Shown in pieces: positions 23,954-29,709 of a stretch of DNA of 64,000 bases. This stretch comes from Bacteriovoracaceae bacterium (GTDB lineage Bacteria > Bdellovibrionota > Bacteriovoracia > Bacteriovoracales > Bacteriovoracaceae): positions 1-64,000 of the forward strand of contig JABIHA010000058.1 in NCBI GenBank assembly GCA_018649885.1. The letters run 5' to 3'. Below the pieces are notes generated by a model. It was given only the letters and a program-made list of their open reading frames with translations, was not told where the DNA came from and ran no database searches. A program made the translations under genes and the position numbers. Within the stretch, counting starts at the first letter, position 1; every line of letters begins with the position of its first letter.

Positions 23954-24676
23954 ATGGACTACGACTCCAAAATTTACTCAATTGCCAAAAGCTGCCCTTG
24001 GTACGATCTTCAGCAAAGATTTGGCCCCCCCAATGTAAAGTGGTGTGAGGAAACTCTTTGTCAGTATATTACAGAGCCCGCCAATACTTGGAGCAATCTT
24101 GGCTACATGCTACTTTCATTTATCATTATTTACCTCATCAGAAAAAACAAAGTCGAAGGATATTTAAAGCTCTATGCCCCGATCGTTTTCATCATGGGTC
24201 TATTTTCCTTTATATATCACTTCTCACTAAATTATCTGACTCAGTATCTAGATTTCTTTGGTATGTACTTCTTTATTGGAATTGCGATCGTAGGATCTCT
24301 TTCATGGAATAAACAAAAATCAGTCGCACAGGCCAGTTTAATCATCTTGGCAGTAGTAGTGGTTAATAGCTTGTTGTTTGCATTGTTTCCCTTCATCGGG
24401 ATTCCTATTCAAACTATTATAGGGCTCAATGTTCTTTTTGCCGTGGCGATAGAACTGAGAAACAAGTTTGTCTTAAAAATTAACTTACAATATAAAAATT
24501 TGGTTATTTCTTTGTGTTTATTTTCAGTGGCACATATTTTTCAAGTCTTGGATCTCAAAAGAATTCTTTGCGATCCCACCAATCATTTCTTTCAAGGCCA
24601 TGCCATGTGGCATTTAATTGGCGGTGTTGGCAGTTTATTTGTATTTTTACACTACTCTCAAAAAAGAGAGTCCTAG
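23954..24676 (+). CDS. Ceramidase-domain (CREST family) membrane hydrolase
   Basis: WCEE..ITEPANTWSN, SFIYH..D, HAMWH; about 7 TM helices. Confidence 0.85.
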   Translation: MDYDSKIYSIAKSCPWYDLQQRFGPPNVKWCEETLCQYITEPANTWSNLGYMLLSFIIIYLIRKNKVEGYLKLYAPIVFIMGLFSFIYHFSLNYLTQYLDFFGMYFFIGIAIVGSLSWNKQKSVAQASLIILAVVVVNSLLFALFPFIGIPIQTIIGLNVLFAVAIELRNKFVLKINLQYKNLVISLCLFSVAHIFQVLDLKRILCDPTNHFFQGHAMWHLIGGVGSLFVFLHYSQKRES

Positions 24677-24680
24677 TACA

Positions 24681-25790
24681 CTAGTGAGGGTTTACTGCAA
24701 AGATGCTGGTTTCATCAAACCAATAGGATCCAAGCATAACCCTGTGTCCGCCCTGCTTACAAAAAGTATTTTTGAGTCGCATTTTTGAAAGAGTGTTCAC
24801 TGCCTTTTTGGGTAGTATGTCGGCACTATATTTTAGAAAGTCAGCCTTATTTCCAACTTTGACGAATCTTCTTCCTCTAAGGTTGAGGCGAAATGGAAAT
24901 TTGAAATACTGAAAGAAATGTAAGTAATCAAATTTTTTGATGGCCGCTCTTTTAAGAGAAAAGTAGGTTTTTATAAATGATTCTTTAAGGGAAACCGAAT
25001 CCATTTGACAGAGAGATCCCCCCTGGGCACCTTGATTCCTGGAAACTAATCCCGCAGGGTAATCATAGTAGAACTCAAGACGATTGTATCCGCAAAATGC
25101 AGTTTTAGATTCTATGAGAACATCATCATCACTAAATTCAAATTTAATCTTTTCATTTTTTGCTACTTGCTTTTTAGTTTTTGAGTACGGTGACTCTATT
25201 TTCAACAACCCTTTAAGATTTGCTTTGCAATTGGATTCAGAGAATTTTAATTGATATTCAATACCACCATTTTTTGTCAACCTTGTTTTTAAACTTCCTC
25301 CCAGTGTTTTGAAGTCTCCGGAGAAAAAAGCGGGGTCCTTTGATATGGATCTAGTATAGGGACAGGTAGAGTAATGGTAGGGAAATTGTCCACTTGATTT
25401 TCTATTTTGACGATCACTGGGAAAGCGACACGCATAGTTGGTACTGACCCAAAAGAACTCTCCTGATTTTGCTTTAACACAAGAATAGGTTCTCTTGTAA
25501 GGAGTAGAGCTAAAGCTTAAAATTTCCTCATACTGATAGATCGCATACTCTGTGAACTCTGTATTTTTTATGATTTTAGAAATGTCGAGAAGTTTGCAAT
25601 ATTTTGGATCTGAGCAAAATTTGGGATTGGGCCCAATGATTTTATTCGACACAATTCGAATCACTCTATTTGTGGCCGTCACCCCATCTGCTTTTACACC
25701 TTTTGGAACACACTTGGCGGGAATAGCGCTTGAATCTGCCCATAGATTAAAATAAAAAAGGGTGGACAAGAGCGATACAAATAATTTCAA
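24681..25790 (-). CDS. Secreted Cys-rich hypothetical protein
   Basis: TTG start with a GGAAAG RBS, signal peptide, about 10 Cys. Confidence 0.7.
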   Translation of the reverse strand: MKLFVSLLSTLFYFNLWADSSAIPAKCVPKGVKADGVTATNRVIRIVSNKIIGPNPKFCSDPKYCKLLDISKIIKNTEFTEYAIYQYEEILSFSSTPYKRTYSCVKAKSGEFFWVSTNYACRFPSDRQNRKSSGQFPYHYSTCPYTRSISKDPAFFSGDFKTLGGSLKTRLTKNGGIEYQLKFSESNCKANLKGLLKIESPYSKTKKQVAKNEKIKFEFSDDDVLIESKTAFCGYNRLEFYYDYPAGLVSRNQGAQGGSLCQMDSVSLKESFIKTYFSLKRAAIKKFDYLHFFQYFKFPFRLNLRGRRFVKVGNKADFLKYSADILPKKAVNTLSKMRLKNTFCKQGGHRVMLGSYWFDETSIFAVNPH

Positions 25791-25855
25791 GATTCTTTCC
25801 TTAAAATACAGAATTTTATATTGAATTGTATTTTAAATATCTGAGATAGGCCATT

Positions 25856-26707
25856 TTACAAGAGGTAGTGCTGACATTCACCACTGGCACTTAGAAGTAT
25901 AAAACCTCTAACCAGTTTTCCATCGTAACTACCAGTATCTTCTGAACCTTCATTGGGGTGTGCAAGTTCGGTACCCAACAGCTGAGCATCCATAGTGCCG
26001 CTAATTGCCATGGATGAAAATGAACTAGACCCGGTCAAACCATAGTTGTTTTGAATATTGTATTCATCTGTTGCCGTGAGAGATCTCTGAATTGTTCCGG
26101 CCGAAATAGTGGGCCCCATAACAGTATTTGATGAGCTGTGATCAAGGCCTAGAAGATGACCTGTCTCGTGAAGGATAATTGAGGGTAAATCATAAGTCCC
26201 ATTTGATCCATTGGTTGAAAAATTCCAGTTTTCTTCGTTTATAAAGATATCGGCATGCTCTAGTTCTATATAACTTCTGCCACTACTATCAATTCGGGTA
26301 ACTCCAAAGTACTGAGTGACAGCAAGAGCATCTGATGAAAGTGAGCTAGGCCAATCAGTTAAACGATAAATTCCCATTTCACCGTCATAGTAATCTTCCA
26401 GGTTTTGTCTTTCCACATTTGGACCTGTAGTAGTTGATGTAAAGAAATCTTTTCCACCATTCGTGGCCGTTTCCCACTTCCCTAACATGCTTGAAAAATA
26501 CGAGTGATCGCTATTTGAAAAATCATCGGAATAAGTGATTGTTAGTGGTAACCTGTTATCCGGCCAATGACTATTGCCTTTAGAGCTAGCAGAAGAGCTT
26601 CCTGAGGAGGTATTAGAAGTCCTCTCTCCTCCACTGCTTCCACCCATAAGTGCATTACAGCTGGTTAAAATTATGAAACTGGCCATTAATAAAAATTTTT
26701 GTAGCAT
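25856..26707 (-). CDS. Matrixin (M10/metzincin) metalloprotease lipoprotein
   Basis: Lipobox LTSC, Ser-rich linker, HETGHLLGLDH zinc motif, Met-turn VMGP. Confidence 0.9.
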   Translation of the reverse strand: MLQKFLLMASFIILTSCNALMGGSSGGERTSNTSSGSSSASSKGNSHWPDNRLPLTITYSDDFSNSDHSYFSSMLGKWETATNGGKDFFTSTTTGPNVERQNLEDYYDGEMGIYRLTDWPSSLSSDALAVTQYFGVTRIDSSGRSYIELEHADIFINEENWNFSTNGSNGTYDLPSIILHETGHLLGLDHSSSNTVMGPTISAGTIQRSLTATDEYNIQNNYGLTGSSSFSSMAISGTMDAQLLGTELAHPNEGSEDTGSYDGKLVRGFILLSASGECQHYLL

Positions 26708-26964
26708 CCATTTTCCCTTGCTCTTCTATTTTCAGGCCATAGGGAAATCAATGCTCCATAAATGTTACTATTAATGAAAAAATGTTCTTTTTACCATCAT
26801 TTAGACAATACGTGCATATTTAGGTCACTAAAAAGAGCGCCAATAATTATTGCGGTATTTGGGCCATGAGCACAATAAAATATATTTATATAATGTTATA
26901 CCTACCTCATATTTTATTTGGAAAAAAGATGTTTAAAGTTGGTGAAAATAGTTATGGGAAAATT

Positions 26965-27330
26965 CTGTTCACGATACTGGAGCTTTTAGTGATCTAATGA
27001 AGTCCTATAAATATCTTTAACAGGGTCGCCCAGACAAGGCATGATTTTTAAGCAGAGTATTTTTTCCTGTAACATTTGTGGAATCAATTAAGGAAGGATG
27101 CTGTTCACGGTGCTGGAACTTTTAGTGATCCTATGAAGTCTTATAAGCACCTTCATCGGGGTCGTCGCCCAGACAAGGCATACTTTTTAAGCAGAGTATT
27201 TTTTCCTATAAGATTTGTGGAATCAGTTAAGGGAGGATGCTGTTCACGGTGCTGGAAGTTTTAGTTATTTTATGAAGTCTTATAAGCACCTTCTATCAAG
27301 GCGTAAATTTTTAAGCAAAGTAATTTTTTA
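26965..27330 (+). repeat. Tandem array of ~136-139-bp non-coding direct repeats (two full units plus a third, shortened and diverging unit)
   Basis: Units start with CTGTTCACG at 26965, 27101 and 27240. They share TTTTAGT.AT..ATGAAGTC.TATAA and AAGGC.T..TTTTAAGCA.AGTA; units 1 and 2 also share ATTTGTGGAATCA.TTAAGG.AGGATG. Confidence 0.95.
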
Positions 27331-27396
27331 TTGATGTCTCGCTCTAGCAGAGTTTAGTTAGCGTGGTAATTGCTCTTATTAAAAATAAATATGTGG
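27175..27396 (+). repeat. Left arm of a long inverted repeat (pairs with 28641-28864)
   Basis: 27209-27307 is the exact reverse complement of 28732-28830; 27175-27348 vs 28691-28864 has 4 mismatches in 174 bp; degenerate match continues to about 27396. Confidence 0.95.
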
Positions 27397-27544
27397 TTCG
27401 GTGGTAAATTTGATTAATACATTAGTTTGTCAGTTTGATAGCTATTTGGATTTTTTTTTGTCAATGTGGTGGGACAAATTTTGGCCGCAGCTTGATATCA
27501 ATAAACAAGTAAGAGAAAAAAATTGAAGCCGATCTATGAGTTGC

Positions 27545-28414
27545 CTAGCTCTGATTTATATATAAATCCATTTTTCCTTGTGAGAGTGCCACAATAGCAG
27601 CTCTTGCATTACAATTTGAGCATAATTGGCGCACGTTCCCAATCGCCGATGATCCTGAAATACTATAAGGGATGATGTGATCAAAGTGTAGATTGTATTT
27701 TGAACCACAGTTCTCACACTTATTTCCGGATCTTGCGATCACAGCTTTTTTGATAACAGCAGAGATTGCTCTTTTGTTTGTGATGACCTTAGATTTTCTT
27801 GATCCAATACCCTTTATCTTTTTTCTCATGGATTCTGCCGCAGAATTAATAATATGTCCGATGACCTCATCTGGTTTATAGATTCCCTTATTAGATAGCT
27901 GCTCTTTTATAAACTCATAGTCTTTTGCAGTTTGTCCCACCAAGGTTAGGTGCATACGTAGACTACCATCTGAATGAGCACAAGTTTTAAATTTTGTAGC
28001 ACGCTTCTTTCCAGTTAATTCGTCCACCATCTCCCTTGTCTGGGTTTGAGTTTTCCCTTTAATACAGTTGAGTATTTCATTTTTCTTTTTGTTGCTTTTG
28101 ATATTTCCCACTAAATTTGAGACTTCGGCAAGGTTAGTAAGTGTCACTTGTTTATTTGCCAGTGCTTTATCCGCACCTGGAATATGTCTTAGTGTTTTTG
28201 CTGCTAAAACCCTGCGACTTGTTTCACTATCACTTTTATTAAAATTCTTGCGAATATATTTAAAGAGAGAGCCTGTCTTGTCATCACAAAAAAGTCTCCG
28301 TCTATTGACTTCATTAATGTGGCGAAGGAATTGGCGAGTACAATGTTCCTCTTTTTCATTCCACATTTTAGTATCTGCAATAAGTCTTTCATCTGATAAG
28401 TTTCGTAATGACAA
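27545..28414 (-). CDS. HNH endonuclease with an N-terminal helical (DUF222-like) domain
   Basis: GGAGG RBS and TTG at 28414 (MSLRNLSDERL); C-terminal R.IS..IKKAVIARSGNKCENCG..LHFDHIIPYSISGSSAIGNVRQLCSNCN, a McrA-type Zn-HNH. Confidence 0.9.
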   Translation of the reverse strand: MSLRNLSDERLIADTKMWNEKEEHCTRQFLRHINEVNRRRLFCDDKTGSLFKYIRKNFNKSDSETSRRVLAAKTLRHIPGADKALANKQVTLTNLAEVSNLVGNIKSNKKKNEILNCIKGKTQTQTREMVDELTGKKRATKFKTCAHSDGSLRMHLTLVGQTAKDYEFIKEQLSNKGIYKPDEVIGHIINSAAESMRKKIKGIGSRKSKVITNKRAISAVIKKAVIARSGNKCENCGSKYNLHFDHIIPYSISGSSAIGNVRQLCSNCNARAAIVALSQGKMDLYINQS

Positions 28415-28640
28415 AGCTACCTCCCAATTAGAAGTAACATACCATTTCAATCACATAAATTAAATGAAAAGATAAAAAGTTGTCCAATCTGAAGTTAATA
28501 AAGGCTAGTGCAGTAAGCACTTTTAAGCAACTCACATTCAAAAAACAAGGCAATGTAAAATACAACACATCAACCAATTATCACAAAACCATTCCACCAA
28601 ACTGATAAAAAAAGACAAAGATTCCAAATACCCATAAGGC

Positions 28641-28864
28641 CCACATAATCACTTTTTCTATAAAAGCAACTACCACGCTAATTAAATCCAGCTAGAGCGA
28701 GACATCAATAAAAAATTACTTTGCTTAAAAGTTTACGCCTTGATAGAAGGTGCTTATAAGACTTCATAAAATAACTAAAACTTCCAGCACCGTGAACAGC
28801 ATCCTCCCTTAACTGATTCCACAAATCTTACAGAAAAAAATACTCTGCTTAAAAAGCATGCCTT
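28641..28864 (-). repeat. Right arm of the long inverted repeat (pairs with 27175-27396)
   Basis: Its reverse complement matches the left arm base by base. Confidence 0.95.
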
Positions 28865-29058
28865 TTCTGTGCATCCCTGAAAAGTGCTCTTCAAAATTTA
28901 GCATCCCCACTAATTTTTCCAGGACCATAAACAACTTACCCCGCAATTCGTTCTACAAGGCGCTCTTCCCTTAAAGAAGTCATCTTTAAGCACTCTTCTG
29001 CAAAATTAAGTGGGGTTTTAATCAGATAGCCAAATACAAGGTTATCAGCACAATTTAC

Positions 29059-29709
29059 TTAAAAAATTTTTGGATTATTGAAGTCATTATTGTCAATGCA
29101 CATAGAGGCCTTACTCATAGGATTGCAGCGATTAAGATAAATCAACTGTCCCTGGTAATATCTTGTGTTCTTTTCATCGAGAAAATCTGCAGGACAACCA
29201 TCACGTTTTGCCATTCTTTGGTATGTAGTTCCAAAAGAGGCATCGAGAAATACTGAATAATCCCAATAGTCACACACCTCTTCTCGGTGGAGAAATATCC
29301 CATCAAAAACCAAGATCACATCTTCAGCAAATGAAATGGGACAGCTGGCCAGCTCTGAGTCTATTTTGTGATCAAAATGCTTTAAATCGATTTGTGGATC
29401 GGTTTAAAATTTTAATGGATCAAGCAGCTTTTGTTTTACAGCATGGTAATTAAAAGAATCCTCAAAAAAACTTTCAGCAGAGCTTTTTCCTTCTGGATAT
29501 CTTTTTATTCGTGGGTTATGAAAATAGTCAATTGAGCTATGTAGTACTGATCGGTCAAAAGACTCTAGAACACTTGTCAATTCAGTTGCAAAGTGTGTTT
29601 TCCCCGATCCATCAACTCCATCTATTCCTACAAGAAGTGGACCTTGTTTATCGATGGATAAAAGTTTTTTTGCAAGTGAAACTAAAAATTTGTTTTTAAC
29701 ATTCATCAA
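29059..29709 (-). pseudogene. Uridine-kinase-like P-loop kinase split by an in-frame TAA at 29404-29406
   Basis: The two ORFs share one frame: IDGVDGSGKT..SIDYFHNPR..DPLKF*TDPQIDLKHFDH..LVFDGIFLHR..WDYSVFLD..RYYQGQLIY. Confidence 0.85.

Follow-up and report, generated by a model that had tools for sequence, protein, structure and literature searches.

The stretch of DNA analyzed here (the window; 64,000 nucleotides from a Bacteriovoracaceae bacterium, contig JABIHA010000058.1, positions 1 to 64,000) contains an HNH nuclease gene enclosed by two long inverted repeats, or arms, and this locus is one copy of a single-gene selfish element of about 1.6 kb. Taken alone the locus is ordinary, yet it is part of an unexplained class of transposase-free elements. 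The arms at 27175-27348 and 28691-28864 are reverse complements over 174 bp with 4 mismatches and share a perfectly matching 99-bp core (27209-27307 and 28732-28830); the match reaches 232 bp at 92% (27167-27396 and 28641-28872; E = 5e-92). Sequence comparison bore out the inverted repeat as an initial annotation, made from the letters of this DNA, had described it, including its degenerate extension. A single open reading frame (ORF) lies between them (Pfam HNH, E = 1.6e-10), and Pfam gave HNH families only for the element, with no recombinase or transposase family, in agreement with the same annotation. Sound in these respects, the annotation made no mention that the gene is multi-copy, that its sister clades are one-ended or that the modeled DNA-binding fold is ParB-like, as described below.

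The annotation had called the nuclease solitary; a tblastn search (>70% identity) instead located 25 loci of its subfamily in the genome (75-92% identity), comprising 17 whole genes and 8 fragments, most of the latter at contig ends. The copies are intergenic and lie between unrelated host genes. Read from the TTG start, 16 of 20 rows were open for at least 270 codons and 4 were broken, and one further copy is split by a 1.4-kb insertion. The median ratio of nonsynonymous to synonymous substitution (dN/dS) was 0.089 at a dS of 1.17, from 120 pairs among 16 rows of which 2 are near-duplicates. These alignments showed a multi-copy, intergenic element that, as judged from sequence comparison, is under purifying selection.

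An iterated profile of the arm (164 positions) gave 55 matches in the genome and delimited a module of about 160 bp. Forty-two of the matches fall within 700 bp of the 25 HNH loci, nearly all directed away from the gene, so that the arm does not occur genome-wide without association to HNH genes; the other 13 comprise 1 at a copy interrupted by an insertion sequence (IS; L051), 3 in a gene-less unit on contig C25, and 9 strays. Among the copies with both flanks assembled (n = 15), seven have two arms, seven have one and one has none. That the arms are the ends of an HNH-associated selfish element, one of several roles first proposed for them, gained support from this association with paralogues, from the multiple copies, and from the patchy presence and empty sites seen in relatives.

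Six two-armed copies with near-complete arms were used to assess homogenization; a seventh, C59, was excluded for its decayed upstream arm. Each arm's own partner ranked 1st to 4th of 37. The identity was 0.84 between own arms and 0.69 in other pairings, first in rank among 720 permutations, and a tree grouping the upstream arms as one clade was rejected (p-AU 1e-28; 19 vs 13 rows). The window copy is the most homogenized (0.94), and a tandem junction peculiar to it occurs 3 times in the genome, all at this locus and on both sides. These comparisons of arms showed that the two arms of a copy exchange sequence and have been homogenized against each other; homogenization, already suspected behind the near-identity of the window's arms, was seen in all six testable copies. 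Arms are also inherited side by side, with patchy exchange, and a 14-bp insert switched sides between two related copies as a patch and not as a crossover. Helical phasing of 10-11 bp in arm conservation was not significant (p = 0.065).

Beyond the arms, the left side of the locus additionally holds a 139-bp tandem array and the right side a degenerate second unit (28834-28940). The features are as follows.

28641..28872, plus strand: upstream arm, read as the ancestral end; module 28654-28810; helix 1 ATCAA 28704-28708 and TTGAT 28740-28744 with a 31-nt spacer; helix 2 GGTGCT 28749-28754 and AGCACC 28786-28791, followed by GTGAAC 28792-28797
28834..28940, plus strand: upstream side, degenerate second unit; the window copy alone, on both of its sides, has the junction between this unit and the first
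28420..28444, minus strand: ribosome binding site GGAGG (28420-28424) and conserved extended -10-like sequence (28436-28444) with a putative promoter role
27545..28414, minus strand: HNH gene, 289 amino acids (aa) from TTG
27553..27568, no strand: 16-bp palindrome inside the last codons of the HNH gene
27167..27396, minus strand: downstream arm, which repeats the upstream end in inverted form; module at 27229-27384; halves of helix 1 at 27331-27335 and 27295-27299; helix 2 halves 27285-27290 and 27248-27253
27070..27204, minus strand: second tandem copy, 139-bp period; its hinge holds a GC-rich insert of a type found in several other arms
26934..27064, minus strand: outermost and most decayed tandem copy, outer two-thirds of the end module, downstream side (arm-profile match 27064-26953, E = 2.7e-8)
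25856..26707, minus strand: matrixin, a flanking host gene outside the element
29059..29709, minus strand: kinase, a flanking host gene outside the element, broken by an in-frame stop

Mis-assembly of the inverted repeat, raised at the outset as a possibility, was rejected. A locus from another, independent assembly (L041) is 100% identical to window positions 24548-29239, and contigs from public runs link flank to arm and arm to gene with 0-1 differences, the whole stretch being spanned by no single piece; mis-assembly is therefore unlikely.

A family profile found 38 loci in the genome, and a quick protein tree with long branches resolved three separate, star-like HNH expansions (SH-aLRT 100 each). 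Clades II and III have about 25% protein identity to the clade of the window copy (clade I). Members of clade II share about 450 bp upstream, with similarity ending at the stop codon, and those of clade III about 570 bp upstream; no second ORF was found in the elements of either clade. At their upstream limit, and upstream only, both clades carry a module built like the arm (8 of 8 clade II modules lie upstream of the gene or at a contig end). The module consists of the first half of helix 1, 31 nt, its partner, 3-4 nt, the first half of helix 2, 31-35 nt, its partner, and then GTG or GGG, the loops of both helices being A/C-rich and 31-35 nt long. Because the module of clades II and III is upstream only, the ancestral element was probably one-ended, and the present clade would have duplicated its end, inverted, downstream.

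Between the clades the helices differ by compensatory changes. ATCAA/TTGAT are the halves of helix 1 in clade I, one arm has ATCGA/TCGAT, and the forms of clades II and III are ATCAC/GTGAT and TTCAC/GTGAA, respectively; the helix 1 spacer is 31 nt in 37 of 47 anchored modules; in the cross-clade helix totals 3 of 50 modules are unanchored, and C17D, C47D helix 2 and the second locus of C60 are mis-anchored yet counted. Helix 2 takes at least four forms (GGCGCT/AGCGCC, GCCC/GGGC, GGTGCT/AGCACC and GGGCC/GGCCC). Within clade I, 3 of its 4 core pairs show two-sided changes, a score that 0 of 500 shuffles reached, and few independent events are involved. A two-helix descriptor, composed after clades I and II had been inspected, gave 44 matches compared to 1 in a reversed-genome control, and the clade I profile weakly matched 3 of 5 clade II modules. 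Conservation in clade II drops within about 10 nt after GTGAAC, for which GTGCA and GGGCA stand in in clades Ib and III, respectively. The tail of some arms may resemble a DnaA box.

Several observations concern the arms and their surroundings. The gene-less unit (C25:38109-38900) is a head-to-head fusion, at the gene-end palindrome, of the downstream ends of two different copies; the joint at C25:38415 falls at the site equivalent to the window's 16-bp palindrome. A hairpin-rich insert of 100-116 bp is present in a dozen copies some 50 bp inside the arm and may stand on either side of the gene; it has optional 14-bp and 33-bp palindromic modules, 13 of its 15 matches adjoin arms, and it also occurs at C143:22595-22689 and C43:94181-94263. 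Tandem duplications of 25-340 bp stand directly beside HNH homologues at C62, C28, C17, C104, C137, L013 and L237, some of them armless. Searched genome-wide as a binding site, an ACTACC-type palindrome was found inside elements only (59 vs 60 in the control at 1 mismatch), and a scan of the genome contigs with P0019 gave no match.

The gene most likely starts at TTG 28414, behind GGAGG; the 12 codons above it carry stops in other copies. Residue numbers given here follow a 301-aa version of the protein. The layout is a long helix (residues 20-51), a ParB/KorB-like helix-turn-helix (HTH) region (31-149), a ribbon-helix-helix (RHH)-like region (155-216) and a Zn-binding HNH domain (223-293). 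The HNH residues C245, C248, H258, N272, C277, C280 and N281 are intact, and the Zn-binding and catalytic positions are invariant or nearly so across 102 aligned homologues. In an AlphaFold2 model (predicted local distance difference test, pLDDT, 93), residues 31-149 resemble the DNA-binding domain of ParB bound to parS (Z 7.2, root mean square deviation 3.7, 99 aligned) and of KorB (Z 7.0), a likeness of fold only at 9-15% identity; residues 155-216 resemble RHH proteins (Z about 5), and residues 223-293 resemble HNH nucleases (phage GVE2 HNH, Z 7.5). A homodimer prediction scored 0.77 compared to 0.00 for the best of 3 controls. Of 30 solved pairs 20 passed the mark, as did 1 of 23 single chains; the runs for the homodimer agree in at least 44% of contacts, with a partner pLDDT of at least 71 and an interface at residues 15-56 and 161-209. 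The prediction is thus of a dimer in which the HNH nuclease is joined to an RHH-like region and to a head that reads DNA in the manner of ParB. The DNA-binding domains of ParB, KorB and Noc bind palindromes as dimers, as described in the available text of PMC7383237.

The family has 980 representatives at E <= 1e-10, and the closest Atlas clusters are mostly from Bdellovibrionota. The N-terminus, first described as helical and DUF222-like, is modeled with a long helix. Pfam DUF222 (PF02720) has no match on this protein at E <= 0.1 and none in the genome, and matches are weak in 12 of 102 aligned homologues (best 5.8e-5) and present in 14% of members of one Atlas neighbor cluster.

Of 200 family genomes, 60 contain homologues (1-13 matches per genome). 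For Peredibacter, the part of PMC13147790 available reports 10 and 13 HNH genes in two strains, 6 of them at shared sites. Long arms are rare outside the present genome. Arm DNA gave two 27-28-bp matches among 300 others; the best match of the arm profile in 106 loci of relatives (some duplicates) had E = 0.95, and one of these loci (L102) has an inverted repeat of at least 80 bp, the next longest being 45 bp. The HNH homologue at that locus (genome G320) is flanked by inverted arms of its own, which are shorter, at 81 bp and 47 bp, and end in GGCCCGTG, as in clade II. In three other lineages an end palindrome is specific to the resident HNH subfamily. Genus g37 has an 18-bp palindrome with 57 copies in genome G427 and 62 in G452 (control 1 each), some as doublets, and in 9 of 10 G427 loci it lies both upstream of the HNH gene and inside it, in the linker; it may resemble parS/NBS sites. 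Genomes G034 and G024 hold 9 copies each of their own end palindromes, and each palindrome was absent from the four further genomes examined for it.

At one G427 site 6 of 7 congeners are empty, and G452 has a 3'-truncated insert of about 840 bp where the close genome G427 has the palindrome only, which could be an empty target or a footprint. These alignments of sites showed mobility for the wider family, at about 30% identity, and not for this clade. No empty site was found for the copy on C3, whose neighbor genes are not adjacent in 24 relatives, and a duplicated flank shared by C125 and C12 gave no junction. At seven G427 loci (L111, L114-L117, L119 and L120) the HNH frame runs into a 3' GC hairpin beside a convergent host gene.

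The explanation we favor, and consider rather likely, is that an HNH-driven, transposase-free element is copied through single-strand replication that starts at a nick. In phages, HNH domains act as nickases specific for one strand (PMC3592412). The dimer would bind the end module and nick at or near it; host replication from the nick would peel off a single-stranded copy in which the helices fold; and host repair would join this copy into a new intergenic site without target duplication. Repeated nicking and re-priming at the module may generate the tandem units, whereas pairing of the arms in the single-stranded intermediate, or nick-induced conversion between them, may keep them nearly identical, and the window copy would simply be the most recently homogenized. 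The logic would be akin to one-ended rolling-circle transposition of IS91, the nearest working analogy, with a hydrolytic HNH nickase in place of an HUH transposase. Fitting such copying are the fixed structured end, the loose other end, the tandem units at the module, the C25 fusion, and the lack of a target-site duplication (TSD). A TSD had been thought worth looking for at this locus; across 9 end pairs the longest direct repeats were 5-8 nt, none above control (mean 6.9). We propose more tentatively, with somewhat less than an even chance of being right, that the family is an unrecognized transposase class, in which a ParB-HTH/RHH/HNH dimer reads its cognate end (in the present genome the two-helix module, in relatives the short palindromes of each lineage), nicks, and drives one-ended single-strand transposition with host repair, and which also seeds REP-like repeats, repairs its own arms and supplies the mechanism for REP13E12-type loci.

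A number of observations weigh against nick-initiated copying or its components. Since an HNH nuclease does not become covalently linked to the DNA that it cuts, host enzymes are needed to join the strands, and we know of no precedent for such a combination. The copies are old (dS about 1.2), and near-identity between genes is limited to C17 with L059 and to C113 with C114 (5' ends), where conversion or assembly may be the cause. An empty site between the matrixin and kinase genes, envisaged by the initial annotation, was not found, none of 24 matrixin orthologues having the kinase as neighbor. Diverged genes rarely share long conversion tracts (2 of 78 pairs), and pervasive gene mosaicism is weak. 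Arms fold no better than shuffled sequences (mean z -0.54 outward and +0.27 inward, 38 arms), and G-U and A-C pairs are balanced (6 vs 8); the folding strand is therefore undecided. The presence of helix 1 in all clades could also be due to symmetric half-sites that co-evolve with the protein. None of 80 upstream flanks from other genera matched the two-helix descriptor; the module may be local to this lineage, other lineages having simple palindromes instead. As for the modeled structure, Foldseek gave no match at E <= 0.001, though the same kinds of fold were returned; the fold Z-scores, all under 8, are middling and may reflect mere common arrangements, and the homodimer pass may reflect likeness to solved helical and RHH dimers.

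An unlikely alternative is that the element is non-autonomous and moved in trans by an HUH transposase of IS91 or IS200/605 type, the HNH protein being a passenger that protects or restores copies, as IscB and TnpB do. The genome has 2 Y2 and 3 Y1 transposase matches, and, its assembly being 92% complete, a helper could be missing from it. Two subterminal helices, the lack of a TSD, and the GAAC/GTTC end of clade II and many clade I modules recall the IS91 oriIS as described in the available portion of PMC13181058, and the 5' end of one Y2 element has a 44-bp AT-rich match to the C3 arm tail. However, none of the three profiles of the module matched any of the 5 HUH loci, taken with 2 kb on either side where assembled (best E 0.36), and the Y2 elements have ends of a different sequence. 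The replacement of GTGAAC in clades Ib and III, and the specificity of end palindromes to the resident HNH subfamily in other lineages, also weigh against a helper.

A role for the module as a non-coding RNA partnering the nuclease, its two short stems and two constant-length loops serving as scaffold or guide, is quite unlikely. This idea, also present in the initial annotation, draws support from the two short helices: they covary in clade I helix 2 and further across clades, and the constant loop length, G-poor loops and tandem module arrays would suit an RNA. Other results speak against it. Rfam gave only chance-level eukaryotic matches in the window and none in 3 other loci, the arm consensus fold reaches only -1.96 kcal/mol, and z-scores near 0 and the lack of G-U bias point the same way. 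The loops match their own flanks no better than control flanks (9.5/8.7 nt vs 9.3/8.9 nt), and no exact arm 18-mer occurs elsewhere for any of 38 arms (120 bp around each arm masked; split guides not searched for). Tandem units repeat identical loops rather than new spacers, the N-terminal half of the modeled protein resembles a fold that reads double-stranded DNA, and the match to IscB (NF040563, 32 bits vs a cut-off of 175) covers only residues 221-271 of the HNH part.

It is improbable that the family is a domesticated host nuclease for defense or repair, spread long ago by ordinary recombination, with arms as passively homogenized regulatory leftovers. The age of the copies and the purifying selection on them would be expected of such genes, phage and plasmid collections gave no match to the HNH family, and REP13E12 loci are gene-conversion hotspots linked to LexA in the available text of PMC13061034 and PMC4181829. 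Three separate star-like expansions in one genome, patchy presence with empty sites in relatives, and several broken or truncated copies are at odds with it, and PADLOC returned only weak matches (E >= 0.005). An invertible cassette, or a converging promoter pair controlling a toxic nuclease, both suggested initially, is very improbable: long inverted arms can recombine and the 14-bp insert did switch sides, but there is no recombinase, the switch was a patch, a flip would change little with the gene's putative promoter inside the arms, two arms occur in only 7 of 15 copies and the related clades are one-ended, contigs of four public runs showed no inversion or empty-site joint assignable to this locus (those listed are short-sided and agree with paralogues; contigs alone do not demonstrate absence), and the main arms have no inward sigma-70-type site, the region holding 3 sites compared to 8.5 expected.

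Other observations concern the neighborhood of the locus and other repeats of the genome. The flanking kinase (29059-29709, minus strand) is uridine-kinase-like (PRK07667 family) and is split by an in-frame TAA at 29404-29406, where a spanning public-run contig shows no difference. GC skew across window positions 26800-29000 passes from positive to negative over the element, and the arms read outward are G-poor (skew -0.35). An IS91-family element at C138 and C63 has a 486-aa open frame in two copies that are 88% alike, and its 3' end stands alone at a dozen further places. A double palindrome, GTTAAC-N-GTTAAC, has 10 copies (C44, C51, C65, C89, C132 and C144), one beside a Y1 transposase and one beside the stray C132 arms, a possible REP-RAYT pair.

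To our knowledge, bacterial transposases are DDE, HUH, Tyr/Ser, DEDD or Cas1 enzymes. If our proposal is true, HNH-only spreading elements add a transposase class, and the number of representatives and of family genomes with homologues make the family a large one. The mirror-image ends would be two copies of a folded end signal that related elements bear once, which gives a handle on how they spread. This genome offers three protein clades with three versions of one end module, in one-ended and two-ended forms, and its relatives add empty sites that are exact as well as palindromes that are cognate, so that direct tests can be made of binding specificity, of where the nick falls and of mobility, unlike for REP13E12 so far. 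A dimeric nickase of 289 aa that acts at specific sites, and whose palindrome specificity can evolve, could in addition prove useful as a tool.

In the open-licence PMC and bioRxiv literature we found no description of HNH-only elements with such ends, and REP13E12, described free of mechanism, was the sole printed likeness. The element is not a member of the IS91, ISC/OMEGA, RAYT or DDE families. Like IS91 and ISCR elements, it combines a fixed, structured end that holds two subterminal palindromes with an opposite end that is looser, it has a GTTC-like tetranucleotide at the end, and it lacks a TSD; according to PMC13181058, IS91 transposes one-ended, with GTTC/CTTG targets and without a TSD, and its oriIS has a pair of subterminal palindromes. 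Unlike them, it contains no HUH Y2 transposase, its enzyme being an HNH protein with a ParB-like head, and its fixed end lies upstream of the gene and is doubled in this clade; the genome's two Y2 genes and its Y1 genes lie elsewhere, without the module. As in ISC/OMEGA elements (IscB, HEARO-type), a mobile element has a resident HNH-domain gene adjoining a conserved non-coding module, whereas here structure matches to IscB and Cas9 are restricted to the HNH domain, with no RuvC match, no Rfam RNA, no guide match and no linked TnpA.

The dispersal of the g37 palindrome, 57-62 times per genome with some doublets, is like that of RAYT-REP/REPIN systems. RAYTs are HUH enzymes and typically single-copy in the available text of PMC5581495; the present nuclease is HNH and multi-copy (25 loci), and most copies of its module in this genome accompany the gene. 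The Zn-binding HNH domain and the single selfish gene recur in free-standing HNH homing endonucleases and phage HNH nickases; unlike homing endonucleases, the element occupies many unrelated chromosomal sites instead of a single homing site, has dedicated end modules and has no match in the phage collection. Residues 31-149 are modeled with the fold of ParB, KorB and Noc, without a CTPase domain and fused to RHH-like and HNH domains. Of the marks of classical DDE insertion sequences, a DDE transposase, short terminal inverted repeats and a TSD, it shows none. A further known system is that of the mycobacterial REP13E12/DUF222-HNH genes. As far as the available texts go, such genes are among the repeats of M. 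tuberculosis (PMC10589994), 13E12 HNH genes are under LexA (PMC4181829), and REP13E12 loci underwent 87 gene-conversion events and 'lack defined biological function' (PMC13061034). Unlike these, DUF222 is undetected in the present protein and genome, and the same texts describe no end modules, arms or mechanism for REP13E12. Both comprise dispersed, multi-copy genes with a C-terminal HNH domain and a helical N-terminal region, no transposase, and conversion among copies, and kinship between the two is probable.

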